Source: an uncultured Chthonomonadaceae bacterium
GTDB taxonomy: Bacteria > Armatimonadota > Chthonomonadetes > Chthonomonadales > Chthonomonadaceae
Assembly (NCBI GenBank): GCA_963835065.1
Contig: CAWIEK010000053.1
Span: forward strand, 508,595-572,594
DNA: 64,000 nt
Direction of reading: 5' to 3'
A program made the translations under genes and the position numbers. Of the stretch, positions 1-11,668 are shown one piece after another. The notes below the pieces were generated by a model, which did no database searches, had not been told where the DNA came from, and saw only the letters and a program-made list of their open reading frames with translations. Within the stretch, counting starts at the first letter, position 1. The number at the start of each line of letters is the position of its first letter.

Positions 1-1729
1 TGTAATACTGGCGCAGTTCCAGCGAGGATTTGCCAAAGTTGCCGCTCCCAAACACGCCCGGAATATCCGCGCCGTTGCCCACAGGCCGCAGGTTGGCGTG
101 TCCCAACGCCATTGTGAAGGACTGATAGCCGCCGCGTACCGCATCGTCCGGGAAATCGCGCGTATCGTGCAGCAGCAGGCCGCTCATCTGGAAAATCGGC
201 CCGTTTTGAAGAATTGTAGAACTCAGCCCGCTCAGGTCGGAAAGCGGATCGGTGCGCGTGTCCTCGCCTTTCAGGGTCAGTCCCGCCCGCAGCGTGTCGC
301 TCAAGGGCCGCAGAAACGCGATGCTGGCTCCCGTTCGTTGCTGATTGAACTGCCCATTTTGCAGCGACGATTGCGAATTGAACAGGCCGTTTTGCAGGCT
401 GGACGAAAACCGCGTGATGTTCTTGTCATACAGCGACAAGTCCATTTGCGTCCCCTTTTTGTCCACCCAGGGGCGCAGGTAATCGGCTTCCAGCGTATGC
501 TGCTTGAACGAACTGGTTCCTAATGCTCCCGTCAGGCTCAGGGTTTCGCCCCGCCCCCGGAAGTTATGCTCCACAATGGACGCGGTTCCCACCGGCCCGG
601 AACTCGCGCTGTAACTCAAACCGCCCAACACCTGCCCGCTCTTCTTTTCCGGCACGTTGTAGACAAGCGCGATTTTGCCCGGTCCCGCGCTGCGCTCTTC
701 CACCGTCACGTCTTCAAACAGGTCCGTCTTGTACACAGCCACGCGGTCACGCTGAACGGTAGCGCGATTGTAGTAATCGCCCTTTTTCGTTTTCAGTTCG
801 CGCAAAACCACTTCGGGGCGCGTTTTGTGGATTTTGGCAACTTTAATGTCGGAAACCCGCGCCACCACAAGCCGCGCTTTCAGGATTCCCTTTGAATCCA
901 GCCCCGCGTCCGGGTCGGGCGTGACGGCATAGCCGCGCTTGTTGTACAAATCCTGAATGTCGGAGCAGTCGCGGCGGAACTGGAACGGGTTGTACACCAT
1001 GCCCGGCTTGACGCGCAGCAGCGGCATAATGTCGGCCTCCTTGACCGGCCCGTTACCCTCTATAGCCACGCCCTTTACGGTATCGTTTTCGTCCACTTCG
1101 ACAATAACTTTGTACCGTTTCGCCGTTTTCGTATCTCCATCGCTTTTATCGGATTTATCTTTTTCGTCTTTGTCCTTGACGCTGTTCGCCATCGCCGCCA
1201 GAATCGGGTTGCGGTCTTCGGCAAGCTCAATGTGAACGCGCACGGCATCTTCGACAGACCCGCTGTGCATCCCGAAGAAGCCTTTCTGGAAGATATTGGC
1301 CCGCATTTCACTCAGCACCGACTCAATACAGGCATCGCCCGCATTGTGCCCGCTGAACAAAATAATGGCGGTTTGCGACAGGGTTTTGTTGCCGATAACG
1401 ACAATCTGCCCGATGCGCGGGGTATCCGGCGGCAAATCGGCTTCGGGTTCCGGCGCAAGCGCGGTAATGGGTTTGAGGATAGAGGAGGGTATGGCGGGAG
1501 CGGGTTTCGCGGCAGTGGTTTTGGCGTCTGTAGAGGGCGCGGGAGTCGTGGTTTGCGCCAGGCAGGAATGCCCGCCCAAAGCCAGCGCGCACAGGGTTGA
1601 CAGGGACAGCGTTGACAGGCGCAGAATAGAAGGCGCAATTACGAGACGTGAGGCGCGGCTGTAGCGATTACGCCGCGCCGTAACCGCCTCGAACGGCGCA
1701 GACACACAAGCAAGGGAGGTTTTCAGCAT
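1..1729 (-). CDS. Omp85/BamA-family outer membrane protein with POTRA domains, 3' end runs off the window
   Basis: Manually translated stop-free frame from ATG 1729 (GGAAGGAG upstream) to position 1. POTRA-like segments (IGQIVVIGNKTLS; KTRPEVVLRELKTKKGDYYNR) then barrel start (EHNFRGRGETL, DYLRPW, HDTRD). Absent from the ORF track because there is no stop in the window. Confidence 0.85.
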   Translation of the reverse strand, partial: MLKTSLACVSAPFEAVTARRNRYSRASRLVIAPSILRLSTLSLSTLCALALGGHSCLAQTTTPAPSTDAKTTAAKPAPAIPSSILKPITALAPEPEADLPPDTPRIGQIVVIGNKTLSQTAIILFSGHNAGDACIESVLSEMRANIFQKGFFGMHSGSVEDAVRVHIELAEDRNPILAAMANSVKDKDEKDKSDKSDGDTKTAKRYKVIVEVDENDTVKGVAIEGNGPVKEADIMPLLRVKPGMVYNPFQFRRDCSDIQDLYNKRGYAVTPDPDAGLDSKGILKARLVVARVSDIKVAKIHKTRPEVVLRELKTKKGDYYNRATVQRDRVAVYKTDLFEDVTVEERSAGPGKIALVYNVPEKKSGQVLGGLSYSASSGPVGTASIVEHNFRGRGETLSLTGALGTSSFKQHTLEADYLRPWVDKKGTQMDLSLYDKNITRFSSSLQNGLFNSQSSLQNGQFNQQRTGASIAFLRPLSDTLRAGLTLKGEDTRTDPLSDLSGLSSTILQNGPIFQMSGLLLHDTRDFPDDAVRGGYQSFTMALGHANLRPVGNGADIPGVFGSGNFGKSSLELRQYY

Positions 1730-2000
1730 CAACGTGGCTACTCCTTCCCATTTCCACGCCAGGCGGCGCGAAAATTTGCCGAGCAAGCGTCAGGAAAGAG
1801 GAATGGGAAAACAATCTGGCGAACATATTCTGACACATATTCGGTATTGACACCGATTTCTCCTGCTTGTAACGGAATTTCCGCCGAACTTTTTCCAATG
1901 AACATCGAGGAGCCGCATGGCAAGATTTTAATTCCTTGTCTGCCGCCTTTGACGCCGCAAAACCTCTCAAAAATATTCGTAAATCGTCTATACTAAATCA

Positions 2001-3710
2001 ATGCCAACTACGGAACCCTCGCCCCGCATGACGCTGTGCCTGGCGGTTGATTTGAAAAAATCAACCGTTGCCGGGCTGCGCCTGTCTACCAAGCGCCTCG
2101 ACCGCTTCAATCTCGCCCTGATACGGCAGTTAAGCCCGCACCTGCTTGCCGTCGGATTGGACAGGGCGTTCGTAAAGTTTACGGGGGACGGCTGGCTGGT
2201 GATTACGGATGATCCCGAAGACGCCGGGGCGCTGTGCTGCCTCGCCATCATTCTCGCCTGCCGCTTTCAGCCCGAAATGGCCGAAGATGCCGGTCTTGAT
2301 CTGGCAGATGTGCCGGCCCTGCGCCTGTCCGTCTGCTTTGGGCGCGATCTCGCCGTAGAATTGCCGAACGGACAGCGCGATTTCGTCGGCGACAGCGTCC
2401 GCCATGCCGTCCGCGCCTGCCAATTCTGCCATGACAACGAGGTTCTGGTGGACGATACCGTGTTGCGCTGGGTACACCACGATTTTGTCACCCAACGCCT
2501 GCCCCTCGAAGACCGCCGCGCCGAATTCCCCGACGCCAAACTCGAACACGATATGTCGTTCCACATTGTCGAAGAACTGCGCGCCGAATCCGTTCTGGAC
2601 AGCGAAGCGCCGGAGCATTTCGTCAACACGCTGACGGTTATCGGGCGCATGGGGGACGCGAAAGCGCTGGCGGGGCGAGTGGCAACGACGCTGCAAACGG
2701 ATGCGGAGGGCACAAACGCCGACCAGCAGGAATTGAACGAGCGCTTTAATCGCCTGCTGTCGAGCCATCTGGATTACGAGACGGTCAACCGCCTGCTGCG
2801 CGACATGCGCGAAGCCGGACTGCGCCCCGATGTGCGAACGTTCAACAACCTCATCGCCAAGTCCGGCGACCACGATACGCAGTGCCGCTGGCTGCAGCGG
2901 ATGCGGCAGGAAGGCGTTCTGCCGGACGTGCAGACGTTCACCATCCTGATAGAGCAGGCCGCAAGCGAGGCGATGGTAACGCGCTGGCTGACCCGGATGC
3001 GCAGAGCAGGCGTCGTGCCGGACACGTATCTGCTGAACGCGCTGATTGACCGCGCCCCTGACTACGAAGGGGTTGCCGCGCGGTTCGCGCAGATGCAGGA
3101 ATGGGGCGTGTGTCCCAACGCCACCACGTATGACCTGCTCATCGAAAAATCGCCGGACGTGACAACGGGGCAAAAGTGGATCGAGCGCATGTTTGAAGCC
3201 GACATCGCGCCCGGTGAAGTGTCGTTTCGCTCCCTGTTTTCCAAGAATTTAAGCGGCGTAAATGCCGACGAACTGCTGGCATGGTTTTTGCGTCAGCCGA
3301 CCCATCCCGTCAACGCCATCTGGCGCGCGATTGCCGAGTATCGCAAGGCAGGCCGCATAGACGACGCCCTGCGCCTGTGCCTCGACTACCCGTACACGCA
3401 GGCCGCGCAGCGCATTTTCCGCGCCCACCCGGATCGAACGCTCGCCTACTTCCAATCCATTCTGCAGTGGGAGCCGAACCACGCAAACGGCGCGTATGCG
3501 CTAGGCCAAGCTCTGCTCACGCTGAACCGCGCTCCTGAAGCCCTCCCCTGGCTGCAAAAAGCGTTCGCGCTGGCCTCGCCCGGCCCCCGCCGCGAAGAAC
3601 TGACCCGCTATCTGGAACAGGTACAAAACACGGCTTGCAAGAAGGTTGCTGAAAATACTTTTTCTGCTGTTCAAACGAGCAGGGATTTTGTAAAGGCTGT
3701 ATGCTTATGA
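2001..3710 (+). CDS. Class III nucleotidyl cyclase-like domain + five 32-aa PPR-like repeats + C-terminal TPR
   Basis: AVDLKKST, VKFTGDG and RDFVGDSVRHAVR cyclase motifs; repeats of type MRxxGxxPDxxTFxxLI at 2736-3215; TPR-like AYALGQALLTLNRAPEALPWLQKAFAL. Confidence 0.8.
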   Translation: MPTTEPSPRMTLCLAVDLKKSTVAGLRLSTKRLDRFNLALIRQLSPHLLAVGLDRAFVKFTGDGWLVITDDPEDAGALCCLAIILACRFQPEMAEDAGLDLADVPALRLSVCFGRDLAVELPNGQRDFVGDSVRHAVRACQFCHDNEVLVDDTVLRWVHHDFVTQRLPLEDRRAEFPDAKLEHDMSFHIVEELRAESVLDSEAPEHFVNTLTVIGRMGDAKALAGRVATTLQTDAEGTNADQQELNERFNRLLSSHLDYETVNRLLRDMREAGLRPDVRTFNNLIAKSGDHDTQCRWLQRMRQEGVLPDVQTFTILIEQAASEAMVTRWLTRMRRAGVVPDTYLLNALIDRAPDYEGVAARFAQMQEWGVCPNATTYDLLIEKSPDVTTGQKWIERMFEADIAPGEVSFRSLFSKNLSGVNADELLAWFLRQPTHPVNAIWRAIAEYRKAGRIDDALRLCLDYPYTQAAQRIFRAHPDRTLAYFQSILQWEPNHANGAYALGQALLTLNRAPEALPWLQKAFALASPGPRREELTRYLEQVQNTACKKVAENTFSAVQTSRDFVKAVCL

Positions 3711-5835
3711 ATGAGACAGTTACGCCTCTTATAACCGTAGATGAAGCTTGTGAACTGAATGAGGACGAGCGGCTGCAACTCCTGAAAGAACGATGGAACT
3801 TGGAACTGCCCATTGTTTTTGGGCGCGTAACATGGCATCAGCGTGGCTATTGGGTGCTAAGTGGTGTGTGCGGCCCTAACATGACACCATTAGAGTACCC
3901 TTTGTCAGACTACAACGGATATGTGGTAGATGAGGTATACATAGGGGAAGAACCCAACATCACCCGTCACTAGAAGGAACATTCGCACGTATAACTTTTG
4001 ATATTGCACCGCATGGTGCTCGTCGAAGACGAAAAAATCCGTTACTTATTTGTGCTGTGCAAGAGAGCCTGACGCAGTACGAAAACATTCGAGCCATAGA
4101 TGCAGTAGCAGGCTTGGACGGCAGCATTTGGGTTGAGGAGTTTGTTAAACAAGACTACCTTCAACGAAAACGGAAACAGTGGGATGAGGTGCTTCGCCCG
4201 TTAGAAAAACGAGTTGAAGAGTTAAAGCCTGAATGTGAGAATTTAGAGAATCAGGTTGTGAGATTCCAACAGGATGTTGATTCCCTGACAACGAGTGTAG
4301 CAATACTCGAAGAGAAGAAACAGATAATGACGAAAAATGTAGAGCAGCTAACGGCGTTTGTTAAGCAACAGGCAACTCGTCTCAGAGATTTGGATTTCAT
4401 TACGGAGGACCAATACAGGCGTCTCATCGGCGAAGATAACTCTAAGCCACCGCAAGAGCCGTACCTTGAGTTCTCGAAAAACCTCAGCAAAAACTTTCCC
4501 AAACTTGTTTCTACCATTCAGGCATATCTACATGAGCAGGGCAAATTGTATCCACGCTATCTTCTCACAGATTTCCTGACCCTGCTGCGCACTCACGACT
4601 TTATTGTTTTGGCGGGATTGTCAGGATCGGGGAAAACGCAACTCGTTAAAGCATTTGCTGACGCGACGCATGGTGTCGCCCATATCATTCCTGTCAAGCC
4701 GAATTGGACGAGCGCAGAAGACCTCCTGGGCTACTATAATCCTATCCAACGCACATATCTCACCACGCCATTTCTAGAAGCGCTGATGCAAGCTAAAAAC
4801 GATCCAGAACGTTTGCACCTGATCTGTCTTGATGAAATGAATCTGGCACGAGTGGAATACTACTTTGCAGATTTCTTATCATGTCTGGAAGAGCGAGAGC
4901 AGGCGCCTGTAATCAATCTTTACTCGCCGGACGAGGCTAATCACGTATTATCGGAGTTCAAGGGCTTCCTTAACCTTGTGGATGACGCAATTTCCAGCCA
5001 GCCGGACACAAAAGTTGAAAAGTTCGGCGACCTCATGTTGAATGAGGCCCTCAACAAGCGGCTTCAGGAACTACTTGGCACGGGGGAAAAGGAACATATT
5101 ATCGGGCTGCACAACCGCCTGCGTCGCCTTGTAGCGGGTGTACTCAATGTTCCCGCAACTTTTACTTTGCCGCTTAACGTCCGTATTCTTGGGACTGTCA
5201 ACGTTGATGAGACAACTCATTATCTCGCGCCAAAAGTATTGGATCGTGCTCATGTACTCCGCTTCATAAGCCCTCTCGAATATGATACAGACAAGATCGC
5301 CGAAGAAGTTGACTCAGCCAAAACCAGTAGGGTGTGGCTCACCCCGGACGACCTTCGATCTCCACGGGAGTCATACCCAAAGTTCAACAAGAATGACTTC
5401 GTTGCTAAGTATCTCATTCAGTGGAGGCAAGACTTTCTCGCACCGCTCGGAATGGACATCGGCCTGCGCACGATTCGACAAGCGCTTCATTACTGTAACC
5501 TTTTTATGGAAGCGGTTGCTGAGGGTTCTGACGATGAGAAGAAGCAGGCTGCGCTCAATGCTGCGCTCAATAATATCCTTTTGCATAAAATTCTCCCTCG
5601 CTTTTCATTCGATGGCCGCAGCAAGGTTGAAGCCAGTATTGCGCCCGACACCGCAGCAGGCACAGATGTAACAAAGCAATCGTTGGTTGTAACATTCCGG
5701 GCAGATGTGGAGAAGAACATAGGGTTAGGAAAACTGCCTGAAAACCTCGTACCCACTCTGAACGCCGTCACAGAGATAGGGCGGCTTGTAGCACGGGCTG
5801 AAAACAACGACGCGGTGTTCAACTACTGGAGCTAG
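3707..5835 (+). CDS. McrB-like AAA+ NTPase with N-terminal domain and coiled coil; split by one frameshift near 3945-3970
   Basis: Walker A GLSGSGKT, Walker B ICLDEMNLARVEYYF, McrB-type GTVNVDETT, KVLDRAH. The main frame is open from 3934 and overlaps the 3701/3707-3973 ORF, consistent with a single gene. Confidence 0.85.
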
Positions 5836-5848
5836 TCATCCGCGCTGT

Positions 5849-8521
5849 TTGACGTTTCATGCAACAGGAAGCCTTGCCATGACTGCTAATTTTCAACTGC
5901 ACTACGTATCGCTGCAATACAGTTCAGGTAAAACTCTTCTGTCACTTACGGCGTCTCACTTTCCCCTTTCGGTTACGAGCGATGGAACCAAGTTCACAGC
6001 AAAGGCAGTCATTTATCCTGACGTTGCTGGAAGACCCGCACAACTAGGCGTAAGCAGTGCCTGCCGTCCCCAAATATGTCGTCCAGACGGAACACTTGTA
6101 CCTATGCGGCGAGTTGTCAAACCTTGTTCAAATGAGGCGTACTGGATTGAAGACGGTAGTTGGGAGGAAAGCTATAAAAACTACACGGCGGAAACCCGAA
6201 ACAAACCCGGACTGTTCAAATTCGAATGCGATGATCAGCAATGCGAAGTAGATATTTCTGTAGAGTCGCGCCCTTTCTCAGAAGCAGAATACTTGTCACT
6301 ACTTGACGATTTTCAGCAGTCCCTGTTCGGTCTCGTAGTAGACCCACAAGGTTCGGTCAGCCACGTTTCGTCGAAACAAGTGCCAATATTTAGCAGAGAA
6401 GTTGAACAATTGTTTCGTGACTTCATCAAATACGCCACACAGATCACAGACGCGCCCACACATGAATTGCGAGAGACACAGGAACTTAGGCGGCCTAGTC
6501 GTGTGAAACCTGTGCGTCGCACGTTCATGGAGATTGCCTGTAAGGGAATGCCTGACAAGTTGACAAGCCGTGCTCATCAGGCATCTTATAACACTCCTGA
6601 AAACCGCTACGTGGCGGCTCTGGTAAACAGAGTGCATCGGGTTGTAAAAAACGCGACAAAGATGTTAGAGGGAAGGCAACGCACACTGGAACGTGCCCAC
6701 CAAAGAAATCGTGACCGTATCATTGAAATTGACCGTATCGAAGCGGATGGGTGGCAATATGTCATTGATCAGGACCAGATGGATTATGAGTTACAGGAAG
6801 CGCAAAGACAATCGGAAGCTTGGCAGCAGCGGCAATTGGAAGAATGGGAGCAACAAGTAAACAGAATAATTAAGGCTCAACCTGTAAGGGAGAAAGCACC
6901 TGTCAAGAACTTGCGAATTAAGACTGTCTTTGCCCCACCCAAGAAGATACAAAATGAAGAAGGCATGCATATTAAAATTAAATGTCGGTTGCAAACAAAG
7001 ACAGACTTTGAAGACCAATCTTTCAACCTCTACATACCTGCTCACTTGTGGTTCCCTGGTCTATTTGATGACAAGATGGAGTATGATATTACGGTTGACT
7101 ATGACTACAAGGGGTCGGAACATGTACTTTCTGTGAAATTTCTTAGTTCCGTTGTCATAGTGGATACACAGCTCTTTCGAAGAGATACACCGCACTTCCA
7201 ATTGGTTGCAAAACTGAAGACTTTGCGAACGAAACTAAAGAGTACCGGCTGGAAGCAACCCATGACAGCCAAAATGATCCACGACCTAAAAGCAGAACGT
7301 CAGGTTCTCGAAAACCGCACTTTGTCAGATACGTCTTCACCCCTTGATAGCCACATACACAACCTCGGCGCGTTAGAGCGACAACTCACGTCGCTTCAGA
7401 AGCGTCAAAAGTCTTTGGGCATCAAGCAGGATGCTCATTTCCCGGGTTCAATTATCTTTGTGCAAAATCCGCTGTATTCCGGCCTCAAATCCTCCTATGG
7501 GCAGCTACTGGTCAAAGGCGAGATCAATGAGGACTTAATGGAGCAGATTACTGGATTGGATGCGCTAGGCATAATTGACCTGCCGACAATTTACGAAAAA
7601 TGGTGCATGGTCAAGTTCATGGATTGTATCATTCGGGATTGCAATTTTATACCTCAAAACAAGAATTGGGTGGATGAGATCGTCTTCACGGCATCAGGGA
7701 AACGAGGAAGGTTTGAATGTGAGTTTAAACACGAGCATCTTCCATACTGTATTCGGTTTTCCTATCAGGAGGCCAGGAGAAACTACGCCTTCAACGAGAA
7801 TCAGACGAGGACATTTGTACCCGACTTTGTTTTTCAATTCTCACATCAAGAACAAAACATTTGGACGGACTTTGCGACTCTGGTATGTGATGCGAAGTGT
7901 AAGAACTTCGCACTCAATAAACCAACTGCTCTGGCTGATGATGCCTGGAACATTGATAAGAAGTACCGTCGAACTCCGCAAGACTTTATCTTCGTCGTCC
8001 ACCCTGCACAAGGCGCTATCAAGCGCCCACGTACAAGTCTGCTTCAAGTATGGGGGCAATCCTCCTTCTATGGGGGGAGTTGGCCGCCTGACTGGAAATT
8101 TCTTACAGATGGAGGGCGTGAGGAAAGGACACGATGGGTAGATCAACAGACGCCAAACCACCGGTTAGGGGCAATACTCTTAAAGCCACTCTCACAGGAG
8201 AGTATAGCCGACACGGACAACTTCAGGCGGCTTGTGCTAATGCTGCTGGAATATGGTTCACAACACAAAGAGCCTTTGTTTTGTTGCGCCTGCGGCAGTA
8301 CAGATTTGAAAAAAGAACAGCAGTACGCAGGGCATAAATTGACTTGTCGTGACTGTGGTGAATTCGCTATTTACACCCACTGCAACAACCTTCAGTGTAG
8401 TATGGGGACTCTAGGCAAACATGCTAACCTATACAAACACGGCACGTATTGGACGTTCCATGACTTTCACCCTACCGCCCCGTACAACATACGTTGTCCG
8501 CAGTGTGGCAGCACATTATAA
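5849..8521 (+). CDS. McrC-like (DUF2357-type) PD-(D/E)xK nuclease with coiled-coil insertion and C-terminal Cys-rich zinc ribbons
   Basis: SYNTPENRYV motif; IYEKWC; PDFVF...CDAKCK; CCACG, CRDCG, HCNNLQC, CPQCG; directly downstream of the McrB-like gene. Start may be ATG 5879. Confidence 0.8.
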   Translation: MTFHATGSLAMTANFQLHYVSLQYSSGKTLLSLTASHFPLSVTSDGTKFTAKAVIYPDVAGRPAQLGVSSACRPQICRPDGTLVPMRRVVKPCSNEAYWIEDGSWEESYKNYTAETRNKPGLFKFECDDQQCEVDISVESRPFSEAEYLSLLDDFQQSLFGLVVDPQGSVSHVSSKQVPIFSREVEQLFRDFIKYATQITDAPTHELRETQELRRPSRVKPVRRTFMEIACKGMPDKLTSRAHQASYNTPENRYVAALVNRVHRVVKNATKMLEGRQRTLERAHQRNRDRIIEIDRIEADGWQYVIDQDQMDYELQEAQRQSEAWQQRQLEEWEQQVNRIIKAQPVREKAPVKNLRIKTVFAPPKKIQNEEGMHIKIKCRLQTKTDFEDQSFNLYIPAHLWFPGLFDDKMEYDITVDYDYKGSEHVLSVKFLSSVVIVDTQLFRRDTPHFQLVAKLKTLRTKLKSTGWKQPMTAKMIHDLKAERQVLENRTLSDTSSPLDSHIHNLGALERQLTSLQKRQKSLGIKQDAHFPGSIIFVQNPLYSGLKSSYGQLLVKGEINEDLMEQITGLDALGIIDLPTIYEKWCMVKFMDCIIRDCNFIPQNKNWVDEIVFTASGKRGRFECEFKHEHLPYCIRFSYQEARRNYAFNENQTRTFVPDFVFQFSHQEQNIWTDFATLVCDAKCKNFALNKPTALADDAWNIDKKYRRTPQDFIFVVHPAQGAIKRPRTSLLQVWGQSSFYGGSWPPDWKFLTDGGREERTRWVDQQTPNHRLGAILLKPLSQESIADTDNFRRLVLMLLEYGSQHKEPLFCCACGSTDLKKEQQYAGHKLTCRDCGEFAIYTHCNNLQCSMGTLGKHANLYKHGTYWTFHDFHPTAPYNIRCPQCGSTL

Positions 8522-8566
8522 GGCACATTGGTTTGATTTCAGACTTCATTCTTGATTTTATAATGT

Positions 8567-8980
8567 TTACTCACTCCACGCGATATTTTGTGCGGCAAGA
8601 TGTGTTCGGATACGCGCAAACTCCTGATCGTGGTACGTCGCCGCCTCCTCTGATGTTGGCTGCCACAGAGCATAACGAACCAATTTGCTCGCCTCTTCCA
8701 GTGCAATATAGTCGGCTTCCATACGGCCCAAATGCTTTTTCACGTACTTGATGCGTTCGTTATGATTCGCGGGAAGTGGTTCCTGGAGACGTCCGCTTTT
8801 TGCAATGGCATGGGCTTGTACAAGCTGCAGAGCGGCATAGAACAGCACCACCAGCGCCCATCCGGCATCTTCCGGCGTTTGCAGAAAGCGTTGGTAACGC
8901 TGGTAGTTCCCTCGCGCGCCATCAATATGCTTGCGCGCTTGCTTTCCCGGCTGCAGCTGTGGCAGTTGTCTGGAGGGCAT
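8567..8980 (-). CDS. HEPN-like domain protein (putative toxin)
   Basis: WALVVLFYAALQLVQA...NHNER...YIALEEASKLVRY pattern typical of small HEPN proteins. Confidence 0.65.
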   Translation of the reverse strand: MPSRQLPQLQPGKQARKHIDGARGNYQRYQRFLQTPEDAGWALVVLFYAALQLVQAHAIAKSGRLQEPLPANHNERIKYVKKHLGRMEADYIALEEASKLVRYALWQPTSEEAATYHDQEFARIRTHLAAQNIAWSE

Positions 8981-8995
8981 GAACGCCTGCTTTCT

Positions 8996-9418
8996 CTACA
9001 CGTCGGCAAAGCGCGGGTTGTTCGCGGCCTCATCAAGTTCACGCCGGGGGCGAAACTCTATATTTATGATGGCATCAGGGTACTTGCGATACAAGTCGCC
9101 GCGTAATTTAACGATCTTATAAAATGCCTCGCTTCGTATTTCGGGAACCTCGATGCGGTATATCGGCTCCCACTCGTTTTCACCTGCGCGCAACGTCATA
9201 GAGGCGTCCCCTATCTTTACGGCACGTTCACGGAAAATGCGGTTAGCAATTTGCGTTTGCGTTTCTGCCAGTACCGGCGCTGGCGTACCCGATGCAACGC
9301 TCTGCCCATCATCCGCAGGGGAAGCGGACTTGGCAGGCGTTTGTTCCGCCGCCTTTTTGCCTGTCCGCCTGCGCTCCGGCTTCGGAAAATAGCGCCCCGG
9401 TTTTAATTGGGTTTCCAT
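8996..9418 (-). CDS. Hypothetical protein, putative antitoxin partner of the HEPN protein
   Basis: 140-aa ORF immediately upstream of and co-oriented with the HEPN gene; AAGGAAGAG before ATG. Confidence 0.5.
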   Translation of the reverse strand: METQLKPGRYFPKPERRRTGKKAAEQTPAKSASPADDGQSVASGTPAPVLAETQTQIANRIFRERAVKIGDASMTLRAGENEWEPIYRIEVPEIRSEAFYKIVKLRGDLYRKYPDAIINIEFRPRRELDEAANNPRFADV

Positions 9419-9465
9419 GATGCCTGGCTCTTCCTTTTATTCGTGGCCTGCCCTGTCCAACACTT

Positions 9466-10195: not shown

Positions 10196-11339
10196 ATGTC
10201 TTCTTTCGCTATTGACGTTGGCGGCCTGCCCCTGGTTCCCCTGGCAGGCTTGCAGAGCCGCAGTCTCAGCCGCGAGAACCCGGATGGCGGCAAGGGCGCG
10301 GGCGGGCAGGCGGGAAAAGGACGCAAGGGAGCGCCCAACATCGAACCCTTGCGGGCAGGCGAAACCGTCACGCTTGCCGACATAGAAGGTCCGGGCTGCA
10401 TCCGGCATATCTGGCTGACCACGCCACCTGGCAATCCGCTCCATGACCGCAATCTTATCATACGTTGCTATTGGGACGGGCAGGAACAGCCGAGCGTGGA
10501 ATGTCCACTGGGAGATTTCTTCGGCATGGCGCACGGACGCCGCAGGCATTTCGCCAGCGCCCTGACTTCTATGCCGGAAGGCCGGGGATTAAGCAGTTAC
10601 TACGCGATGCCGTTCCGCCGACACGCCCGCATCACGGTTGAAAACGATACGGGCGCAGACGTGCCCATGCTGTTCTACCAGATTGATTATACGGTTGGCG
10701 ACGCTCTGGACGACGACACCGGCTATTTTCACTGCCAATTCCGGCGCGTCAATCCGACCACACTGCGCGAGGATTACGTTGTACTGGATGGCGTACAGGG
10801 GCGCGGGCGGTTTTTGGGCTGCGTCATCGGAATTCGGACGCTGGACGCGCATTGGTGGGGCGAGGGCGAGTTCAAGTTCTATCTGGACGGCGATACAGCG
10901 TTTCCCACGATTTGCGGCACGGGCAGTGAAGATTACGCCTGCTCCGCCTGGGGCCTGGGCGTTCACCACACGCCCTATCACGGCTGTCCGCTGTATCTGC
11001 ACCAACATGCGGACGGACTTGACCGCGACCTGAACGCCCTTGTCAGCTATTATCGCTGGCATATCCTCGACCCTATTTACTTTCACGAGAACATCCGGGT
11101 TGCCGCGCAGCAAATGGGCGGCGCATCCGTAGAACAGGTTCGGGAACGCATCCAACAGGGCGCAATAGAGTTGGTAACGCCCCTGAAACCCGGCCAGGCA
11201 TTCACCCTCTTCGAGCGTCAGGACGACATGAGTTCCGCCGCCTTCTGGTATCAAACCCTGCCCACGCAGCCATTCCCCACTTTCCCTGACCGCGCTATTA
11301 CGCTCTATCGGCCTGGAATCGCGCTTGGAGGAACAATGA
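10196..11339 (+). CDS. DUF2961 / GH172-family glycoside hydrolase; apparent fusion to the next gene probably caused by a 1-nt insertion near 11297
   Basis: SRENPDGGKG, GPGCIRHIW, PLGDFFG, WWGEGE, GTGSEDY, YRWHILDPIYF, DDMSSAAFWYQ. The shifted frame reads LRSIGLESRLEEQ-TGA, overlapping the next ATG. Confidence 0.85.
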
Positions 11340-11668
11340 CATTGGACGACGTATCTATACTGCGACAGCAAGCCATGCAGAGTCTCGAAAAGCACATTCG
11401 GCAACAGCAATCACAAACCCAGGCGGAAATTCGCGCCCATTTGAACGCTCACCTGACAGAAGAAGAACAGGAGCGATTGACCCGAATGCAGGAACGCAGT
11501 AAAGAGCAGGAACCCACAGCGGAAGACTTGGAAGAGCGGCAGGAGCTATTTGCCCGCATTGAGGCCGTAGCAACGGAGAAAGCGGCAGCCATCTGGCTGT
11601 TATTGGGCAATTCGCTCCCAAATGGAGGTGGGAAAGGGGTGATGGAGGATGGAGGAACAAACCCATGA
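11336..11668 (+). CDS. Hypothetical alpha-helical protein
   Basis: GGAGG-ACA-type RBS before ATG 11336; ATGA overlaps on both sides. Confidence 0.65.
   Translation: MTLDDVSILRQQAMQSLEKHIRQQQSQTQAEIRAHLNAHLTEEEQERLTRMQERSKEQEPTAEDLEERQELFARIEAVATEKAAAIWLLLGNSLPNGGGKGVMEDGGTNP

Follow-up and report, generated by a model that had tools for sequence, protein, structure and literature searches.

Locus and domain organization

We examined a 64,000-nt stretch of DNA, referred to here as the window, from an uncultured Chthonomonadaceae bacterium (GCA_963835065.1, contig CAWIEK010000053.1, positions 508,595-572,594 of the forward strand). Close to one end of the window lies a 569-amino-acid (aa) open reading frame (ORF), P0001, which joins a class III nucleotidyl-cyclase-like head to five tandem pentatricopeptide repeats (PPRs) of 32 aa and a conserved C-terminal cap resembling tetratricopeptide repeats (TPRs) (Table 1). 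The initial annotation of this DNA had proposed a cyclase-PPR fusion; the fusion is real and recurs in many genomes, and we found no cyclase-PPR fusion described in the literature searched. We tentatively interpret the protein as a single-chain sensor-effector, in which a predicted cyclic nucleotide would be made only when the PPR/TPR solenoid binds a ligand.

The AlphaFold2 (AF2) model of the full-length protein has a predicted local distance difference test score (pLDDT) of 94.0 and a predicted template modeling score (pTM) of 0.82, with pLDDT falling to 59-84 in the C-terminal tail, which is unalignable among homologues. Residues 5-9, upstream of a second Met, are conserved among orthologues, so that the upstream ATG is the likely start. 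The promoter-like sequence ahead of the gene is a weak candidate only, with one site observed in the consensus scan against a chance expectation of 1.4.

Table 1 Features of the cyclase-PPR locus, in window coordinates
Feature	Coordinates	Strand	Basis or remarks
POTRA/BamA-like gene	2-1786	-	Divergent; 214-nt gap to the cyclase gene
Promoter-like candidate, TTGACG-17 nt spacer-AATATT	1949..1977	+	Consensus scan of the 214-nt upstream gap
Cyclase-PPR-TPR protein P0001	2001..3710	+	Open frame, ATG start, 569 aa
Class III nucleotidyl-cyclase-like catalytic domain, aa 9-198	2025..2594	+	AF2, Foldseek, VIA-align, hidden Markov model alignment
Helical linker, aa 205-245, running on into the solenoid	2613..2735	+	Helices 205-213, 217-236, and 242-253 in the model
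Five tandem 32-aa PPR-type repeats, aa 246-405	2736..3215	+	Repeat frames, Pfam, PDB profile, model
Degenerate sixth repeat, aa 406-437, same 32-aa register	3216..3311	+	Helices 406-413 and 422-431; 5th/last residues R, V
TPR-like C-terminal cap, conserved, aa 438-545; travels with the PPR array	3312..3635	+	Profile, VIA-align
C-terminal tail, poorly conserved, aa 546-569, the end of the long last helix	3636..3707	+	Model, alignment
90-aa ORF without family match	3701-3973	+	Overlaps the cyclase-gene stop by 10 nt; island-like low G+C
PDC-M26A/B pair, McrBC-like candidate defense system	4057-8521	+	PADLOC; downstream of the cyclase gene
Two unannotated ORFs	8567-8980, 8996-9418	-	Within the variable block
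DUF2961 protein	10196-11668	+	E 1.3e-79

Fold and active site of the cyclase-like head

The AF2 model of aa 5-205 (pLDDT 94.1, pTM 0.91) matched 187 PDB chains at E≤1e-3 in Foldseek, and all of the matches listed are class III adenylyl or guanylyl cyclases, the best being 5oyh_D (E 1.1e-10, TM 0.73/0.79). In VIA-align the full-length model superposed on the class III cyclase CyaB (3r5g) with a Z score of 20.9 and a root mean square deviation (rmsd) of 2.5 Å over 184 residues. Across CyaB, Rv1625c (7yzi), and rhodopsin-guanylyl cyclase (RhGC; 5oyh and 6aoa) the same fold was recovered at Z 17-21 and rmsd 2.4-3.1 Å over 170-190 residues; purine cyclases other than CyaB scored Z 16-20, and GGDEF domains Z ∼11. 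The ESM Atlas agreed on a cyclase, scoring 0.97 against Guanylate_cyc clusters; the matches in BFVD were giant-virus and phage cyclase-domain proteins only and gave no lead on the trigger. When a profile of 46 family N-domains was compared with PDB sequences, nucleotide cyclases made up the best 21 of 28 matches (E 1.4e-4 to 0.75). The top matches were the E497K/C566D "ATP-converted" RhGC mutants, and the family residue D127 aligns with the engineered Asp of the C566D mutant.

The head carries the motifs AVDLKKST (with D17), KFTGDG (K59 and D63), and VGDSVRHAVRA (R134 and R138). In a hidden Markov model alignment to 3mr7, D17 and D63 fall on the two metal-binding Asp residues, R134 on the catalytic Asn, and R138 on the phosphate Arg, and K59 and D127 occupy the base-specifying positions. 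All 81 aligned family members share D17, K59, D63, R134, and R138 without exception, at least 90% retain D127, and a G.S.R...R motif is present in 185 stored family proteins. The spacing of class III cyclases is also kept (Lys 4 residues before the second Asp; Asp 7 before and Arg 4 after the Asn position), and for K59, D63, D127, R134, and R138 it is presumably equal to that of Rv1625c. Canonical class III cyclases use a transition-state Asn, within the motif G-x-x-V-N-x-A-x-R, at the position taken here by R134. Taken together, the alignments to 3mr7 and RhGC and the conservation in 81 members indicate that five of six canonical catalytic positions are kept and that the Asn is always Arg. 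The initial annotation had already picked out the cyclase fold, its two metal Asp residues, the Lys/Asp pair, and the substitution of Arg for the transition-state Asn, all of which are borne out here. As modeled, the head adopts a class III cyclase fold with a single systematic change, Asn to Arg; its Lys/Asp pair predicts ATP as the substrate. The Arg may preserve, alter, or abolish cyclization.

The initial annotation suggested a search with Guanylate_cyc and PPR profiles, and here the outcome was split. The PPR profiles matched well (PPR_2, 66.4 bits against a cut-off of 30), but Pfam Guanylate_cyc (PF00211) gave no match to the 569-aa protein at E≤1, matched only 2 of the 46 family N-domains (best E 6.7e-4), and was found in none of the precomputed domain sets of 120 listed relatives. 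The head therefore differs from known class III cyclases in its invariant Arg, in the lack of a significant PF00211 match, and in having a PPR array as its regulatory partner. One explanation is that this is a pseudo-cyclase that binds nucleotide without cyclizing it, the head acting as a regulatory or oligomerization domain of a binding PPR protein. The universal loss of the Asn and the failure of the Pfam model would agree with this, as would the appearance among the structural matches of 6yii, a "class III adenylyl cyclase-like ATP-binding protein" (VIA-align Z 13.3). Pseudo-enzymes, however, usually lose catalytic residues, whereas in this family the metal Asp, Lys, Asp, and Arg residues stay invariant or nearly so down to 27% overall identity with the 569-aa protein, and true cyclases score well above 6yii in the structural comparison (Z 16-21). 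We consider a pseudo-cyclase very unlikely.

The 32-residue PPR array and its cap

The initial annotation had noted five tandem repeats of exactly 32 aa, against the 35 of canonical PPRs, with 5th/last residue pairs ND, ND, TD, NN, and DG. Both the period and the pairs were recovered as described, in frames spanning aa 246-277, 278-309, 310-341, 342-373, and 374-405. Within the protein the repeats are diverged, with 3-15 of 32 residues identical between repeats. Their assignment as PPRs is supported by PPR_3 (44.4 bits against a cut-off of 25), PPR_1 (39.3 against 23.8), and NCBIfam TIGR00756 (33.6 against 20), in addition to PPR_2, and the family profile matched designer PPRs in the PDB at E 1.3e-105. 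Each repeat aligns to the 35-aa PPR with a 3-residue gap right after helix A. Short PPR variants of 31-32 aa exist as the S motifs of plant PLS proteins, so that length alone is not unprecedented.

The AF2 model shows an unbroken solenoid of helix pairs over residues 205-545. The ten best Foldseek matches of the full model are PPR proteins, mostly solved with RNA or single-stranded DNA, rather than the TPR or HEAT proteins that would have spoken against the annotation. VIA-align placed aa 245-404 on the synthetic PPR 4ozs with Z 13.2 (rmsd 3.5 Å over 160 residues, 31% identity) and gave Z 11.7 to the PPR domain of PRORP1 with tRNA. Over the long alignments of the Foldseek matches, the rmsd to 35-aa PPR solenoids is 12-19 Å, indicating that the curvature of the solenoid differs from theirs. 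Compared with organellar and designer PPRs (PPR10 4m59, dPPR 5i9f, cPPR 4ozs), the family thus shares the helix-turn-helix repeats, with N/S/T at position 5 and D/N at the last position, and differs in its strict 32-aa rather than 35-aa period, its prokaryotic setting, its enzymatic or immune heads, and its TPR-like cap.

The C-terminal TPR named in the initial annotation corresponds to this cap. Single-sequence Pfam TPR matches at aa 477-535 fall just under the cut-off (TPR_17, 23.6 against 24.4 bits), alignment of the family profile to consensus TPR proteins covers aa 481-534, and VIA-align gives Z 10.8 between aa 454-546 and the TPRs of KLC1. A word-indexed search for the cap (aa 400-545) among longer proteins returned none, a result of the limits of the word index that carries no evidential weight. 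Mean identity in 20 orthologues is 62% for the head, 57% for the cap, 48% for the linker, and 41% for the repeats (35-37% for the middle repeats). The repeats are the fastest-evolving part of the protein, a pattern of sequence divergence that would fit a recognition surface.

One candidate for what such a surface might recognize is nucleic acid: the PPR array would read a short single-stranded RNA or DNA through the 5th/last-residue code, and binding would switch the cyclase on. Beyond the PPR identity of the repeats in sequence and model, the code positions themselves lend this idea support. In 1,125 repeats from 240 proteins, position 5 is N, S, or T in 84% and the last position is D, N, S, or T in 93%, and canonical code-type pairs account for 82.9% (ND 31.5%, NN 23%, SN 9%, SD 6%, TD 4%, TN 4%), confirming that these positions are conserved; purine-type code pairs make up ∼23%. 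In the same set, Val occupies position 2 in 39% of repeats, and a Lys or Arg matches the phosphate-contacting Lys in 72%. Among the 20 orthologues, code positions have an entropy of 1.2-1.5 bits, compared with 2.2-2.8 bits at neighboring surface positions. Against a nucleic acid reader, five repeats would cover only ∼5 nt (predicted U-U-G-Y-?), a word found in almost any cellular RNA, so that such a reading would be unable to mark non-self. Moreover, position 2 in the Armatimonadota clade is frequently Glu, Arg, or Lys rather than Val, the 3-residue deletion alters the geometry of the solenoid, and D, N, S, and T commonly serve as helix N-caps, so that their use as the final residue of the repeat may be structural. 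On this balance, RNA or DNA reading by the array is possible but doubtful. The PPR region carries a net charge of -13 to +6, a measure tried as a test of RNA binding and dropped, as the consensus of designer RNA-binding PPRs is itself acidic.

Distribution of the family

A word-indexed search returned 72 full-length relatives at 97-32% identity, and an exhaustive search returned 3,431 proteins at E≤1e-3. A genome scan located 56 family loci, distributed over Armatimonadota, Acidobacteriota, Chloroflexota, Planctomycetota, Bacteroidota, Actinomycetota, Verrucomicrobiota, Elusimicrobiota, Nitrospinota, and Pseudomonadota as well as archaeal bins. A cyclase head is present in 91 of the 150 best representatives. 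PPR or TPR Pfam domains occur in every one of the best 120 of 134 long head-bearing proteins, which ties this head subfamily to the repeats. Array length varies, and family proteins range from ∼500 to ∼1,400 aa. As far as our searches reach, this is a large family whose architecture and 32-aa PPR-plus-cap module are undescribed in the literature searched, each part belonging to a known class.

Within the host lineage, carriage is sparse. The gene was found in 4 of 68 genomes of the class and in neither of 2 from the same genus. Across the phylum, 13 of the 401 genomes sampled had it, representing 11 of 208 genera, each with a single match. Among sequencing runs, no RNA data set sharing the sequence was listed, and the best DNA data set shared 0.23 of its words, so we make no claim on habitat or expression. 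We grouped genes within 6 positions of the family gene at 55 loci (blastp 1e-8, at least 50% coverage; L013 lacked a focal ORF, and the focal call at L001 was an antisense ORF), and the only cluster present in more than 3 loci was the family protein itself. The gene is thus accessory, patchy in its distribution, and stands alone. In a quick tree of the heads, the Armatimonadota copies formed one clade (15 rows; Shimodaira-Hasegawa-like approximate likelihood ratio test [SH-aLRT] support of 99), and elsewhere phyla were mixed, archaea included. The Armatimonadota clade has a fixed arrangement of 5+1 repeats, and its 192-aa repeat region is free of indels in 20 of 20 orthologues.

Several individual family members are unusual. 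Near-identical heads occur in L047, from a Pyrinomonadaceae (Acidobacteriota) bin, and L049, from Neomarinimicrobiota (branch lengths 0.08 and 0.16, support 100), a likeness to be explained by a recent transfer across phyla or else by misbinning. An 830-aa protein from a Verrucomicrobiaceae bin (L043:939-3428) has a SEFIR domain at aa 60-199 (E 8e-7), a cyclase-like head at 225-427, and PPRs, and is by its domain matches a three-part fusion joining a TIR-superfamily domain to the cyclase head and repeats. A 1,398-aa protein from an Acidimicrobiaceae bin (L038:3-4199) has ∼540 aa without a Pfam match ahead of its cyclase head. The only other match to the head profile in the host genome is weak (E 9.4e-5) and lies in a 466-aa frame (L058, G000:C9:134242-134703), presumably an ordinary class III cyclase.

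A sensor module shared with immune-type heads

Among the 150 best representatives, 59 lack a cyclase head, and in 32 of these the first repeat is preceded by over 250 aa of different sequence. A Pfam scan covered all 32. Five contain TIR_2 (one of them also NB-ARC), three SIR2_2, and four AAA_16/nSTAND; DUF4062, a PGAP1-like hydrolase, Metallophos, and CHAT occur in one protein each; fourteen have unrecognized heads, and the remaining two are ordinary 35-aa PPR proteins. The PADLOC models matched by the TIR and SIR2 heads are ThsB, SAVED-TIR, ThsA, and LmuA. Among the stored relatives the 32-aa period is strict, with 951 of 1,055 spacings in the 12 commonest classes exactly 32. The TIR/SIR2-type relatives have the same period with 8-15 repeats, and a TIR-NB-ARC-PPR protein aligns without gaps over 294 aa to aa 249-542 of the Chthonomonadaceae protein at 30% identity, cap included. 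In another observation, P0145 (TIR-NB-ARC-PPR, 1,117 aa) has ten 32-aa repeats almost identical to each other, which suggests very recent amplification or homogenization in some immune-type relatives.

The 32-aa PPR-plus-cap module is thus fused to TIR, SIR2, CHAT, hydrolase, and STAND NTPase heads as well as to the cyclase, and it is this sharing that leads us to an immune-type sensor-effector reading. Judged by domain content, such swapping of effectors over a common sensor is the signature of prokaryotic conflict proteins resembling nucleotide-binding leucine-rich repeat (NLR) receptors.

The closest published parallel is PaAvs5-3, a working antiphage SIR2-STAND protein with PPR-type repeats in its sensor, which is reported to be activated by the phage protein JADA and also to protect against a single-stranded RNA phage (PMC12931631). 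PPR repeats have also been reported as partners of HNH nucleases (PMC12738770), and in the literature searched these are the only two mentions of PPR repeats in such a setting. Avs5/STAND antiphage proteins likewise place an N-terminal effector ahead of a C-terminal helical-repeat sensor. Our comparison with PaAvs5-3 is drawn from its published description. The Chthonomonadaceae protein differs from Avs proteins in having a cyclase head in place of an NADase, with a 40-aa helical linker alone between head and repeats, and no P-loop or STAND NTPase family was detected in it with Pfam, NCBIfam, or PADLOC. PaAvs5-3 bears in both directions on recognition of nucleic acid: its protection against an RNA phage would be in keeping with an RNA trigger, but the sole tested trigger of a PPR-bearing immune protein is a protein.

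Mycobacterial proteins of the Rv0386 type combine an N-terminal class III cyclase, an NB-ARC/AAA module, TPRs, and a LuxR helix-turn-helix. They share with the 569-aa protein an N-terminal cyclase and a C-terminal helical-repeat sensor, and differ in that here the repeats are PPRs and the NTPase is absent.

The initial annotation had likened the protein to the signal generators of Pycsar and CBASS. The broader immune analogy survives in the module shared with TIR, SIR2, CHAT, and STAND heads, in the patchy distribution, and in the position of the gene in a variable block beside a candidate defense system, but the specific comparison does not. The Pycsar enzyme PycC has a class III fold and serves in immunity, and the model superposes on PycC structures (8jsf, 8jsz, 7r65) at Z ∼16, below its scores to purine cyclases. 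Pycsar consists of two genes, a cyclase and a cyclic nucleoside monophosphate (cNMP) receptor effector (PMC11224242). In the present family, by contrast, no neighbor is conserved in the 55 loci, the Lys/Asp pair predicts a purine rather than a pyrimidine, and the sensor is part of the same chain. No cNMP-binding effector was found with Pfam among 102 neighbors of 21 loci. CBASS CD-NTases were absent from the structural matches listed for the head, where all strong matches are class III cyclases, and from the PADLOC results at E≤1. Because there is no partner effector gene, we conclude that the protein does not belong to Pycsar and probably not to CBASS.

Proposed mechanism and trigger

We propose, at a confidence just short of even, that the protein is a single-chain sensor-effector in which ligand binding by the PPR/TPR solenoid is required for synthesis of a predicted cyclic nucleotide, likely cyclic AMP (cAMP) made from ATP. 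Class III active sites form across a dimer interface, which would be the basis of the switch. Isolated class III cyclase domains can be inactive monomers that are activated by dimerization (PMC11224242). Since the active sites span the interface and isolated domains can be inactive, the simplest switch would be ligand-driven head pairing. In this scheme, a ligand on the solenoid would pair or reorient two heads and so turn catalysis on, by analogy with the oligomerization that activates TIR and SIR2 heads. The predicted cAMP would then act on resident cNMP receptors, or its synthesis would drain ATP. In the host genome, 11 cNMP_binding matches exceed the Pfam cut-off. PF00027 matches are absent from four archaeal genomes that carry family members, a weak point given that their completeness is not given, and for this reason an ATP drain or another product is also conceivable.

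As to the trigger, we place a foreign protein at about an even chance and single-stranded RNA or DNA at an appreciably lower one, and we think it improbable that there is no specific ligand. We regard as unlikely the more inclusive proposal that the family represents a prokaryotic 32-residue PPR code reader, in which 5-6 repeats would bind single-stranded RNA and assemble the cyclase dimer while the same module arms TIR, SIR2, and CHAT heads.

A number of findings weigh against the proposed sensor-effector. The chemistry of the head may differ from cyclization or be lost, given that Arg invariably stands where the Asn would be and that the protein escapes the Pfam cyclase model, and in PADLOC the 569-aa protein matches only PycC, weakly (E 0.014, 12.9 bits). 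The activation logic of TIR and SIR2 proteins may not transfer, because the STAND NTPase found in most such relatives is missing here. A monophyletic Armatimonadota clade with a fixed 5+1 arrangement suggests, from its alignment, a stable role in the cell rather than an arms race. The 102 neighbors of 21 loci are mostly housekeeping genes by Pfam; apart from the window, only 5 of these loci have defense- or mobile-type genes within 3 genes. These five comprise ABC-3C CTD7 with IS91; OLD TOPRIM; a DNA methylase; DndB with Schlafen and AbiU2; and an ADP-ribosylglycohydrolase. The count was made without matched control loci, and we claim no enrichment in islands.

Several of these points would suit an ordinary regulatory adenylyl cyclase, in which the solenoid would be a protein scaffold and cAMP would be read by CRP-type proteins, with no role in conflict. 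Many bacterial cyclases are linked to TPRs. The 11 cNMP_binding matches of the host, the prediction of ATP from the Lys/Asp pair, the single well-supported Armatimonadota clade with its indel-free repeats, and the housekeeping neighbors are all in line with such a role. It is harder to reconcile with carriage by so few of the sampled genomes of the phylum and by neither genome of the genus, with the lack of any conserved partner or operon, with a sensor module common to TIR, SIR2, and CHAT heads, and, more weakly, with the four archaeal genomes lacking PF00027. We judge an ordinary regulatory cyclase to be an improbable explanation, and we retain the ligand-gated sensor-effector as our working interpretation.

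If the head is active, a PPR array would here be regulating a class III cyclase, an arrangement that we did not find described in the literature searched. The family exposes a prokaryote-wide module of strict 32-residue PPRs and a cap that is exchanged among cyclase, TIR, SIR2, CHAT, and hydrolase heads. It makes testable whether bacterial PPRs are nucleic acid readers like those of plants or protein sensors, and whether a lone cyclase head can serve as effector in immunity when no partner receptor gene is present. With its invariant Asn-to-Arg change the family also offers a natural experiment on class III cyclase catalysis, and short, programmable-looking repeats joined to a signal-generating enzyme could interest builders of biosensors. 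Should gating by RNA prove true, this would be the first RNA-gated nucleotide cyclase, and some NLR-like proteins with TIR, SIR2, or CHAT heads would sense phage RNA rather than protein.

Genomic neighborhood

Both genomes of the same genus (G031 and G032) conserve the BamA-like left flank of the gene, and the right flank, from position ∼9460, is conserved in the G031 stretch. No match to the intervening block of ∼7.7 kb (∼1600-9460) was found in the stretches fetched around the conserved flanks of these two genomes. Given the conserved flanks, the unmatched interior, and the unlike G+C contents within it, the cyclase gene and the PDC-M26 pair occupy a variable block, which they probably entered by separate acquisitions. 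The block beside the BamA-like gene is a possible defense hotspot.

The PDC-M26 A protein is an AAA_5 ATPase (E 1.2e-184) that covers only positions 190-724 of the 724-position profile, and the B protein combines DUF2357 with PD-(D/E)XK (E 8.5e-130). The G+C content of the pair is 46-50%, compared with 62% for the cyclase gene. A functional link between the two was considered and rejected on this difference and because the adjacency is unique to the window. The 90-aa ORF between them could represent a third component or else what is left of the absent N terminus of PDC-M26 A.

At other loci, RNA-metabolism genes adjoin the family gene (L002, L019, L023/L055, L029, and L021), encoding RNase Y, RNase R, YbeY, an RRM protein, and a MiaB-like enzyme; they are not conserved across loci, and their number is near chance. 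The neighbors at L049 are DndB, Schlafen-AlbA_2, and HEPN AbiU2. Farther downstream in the window, the DUF2961 protein has several paralogues in the same-genus genomes and is unrelated to the cyclase-PPR gene.

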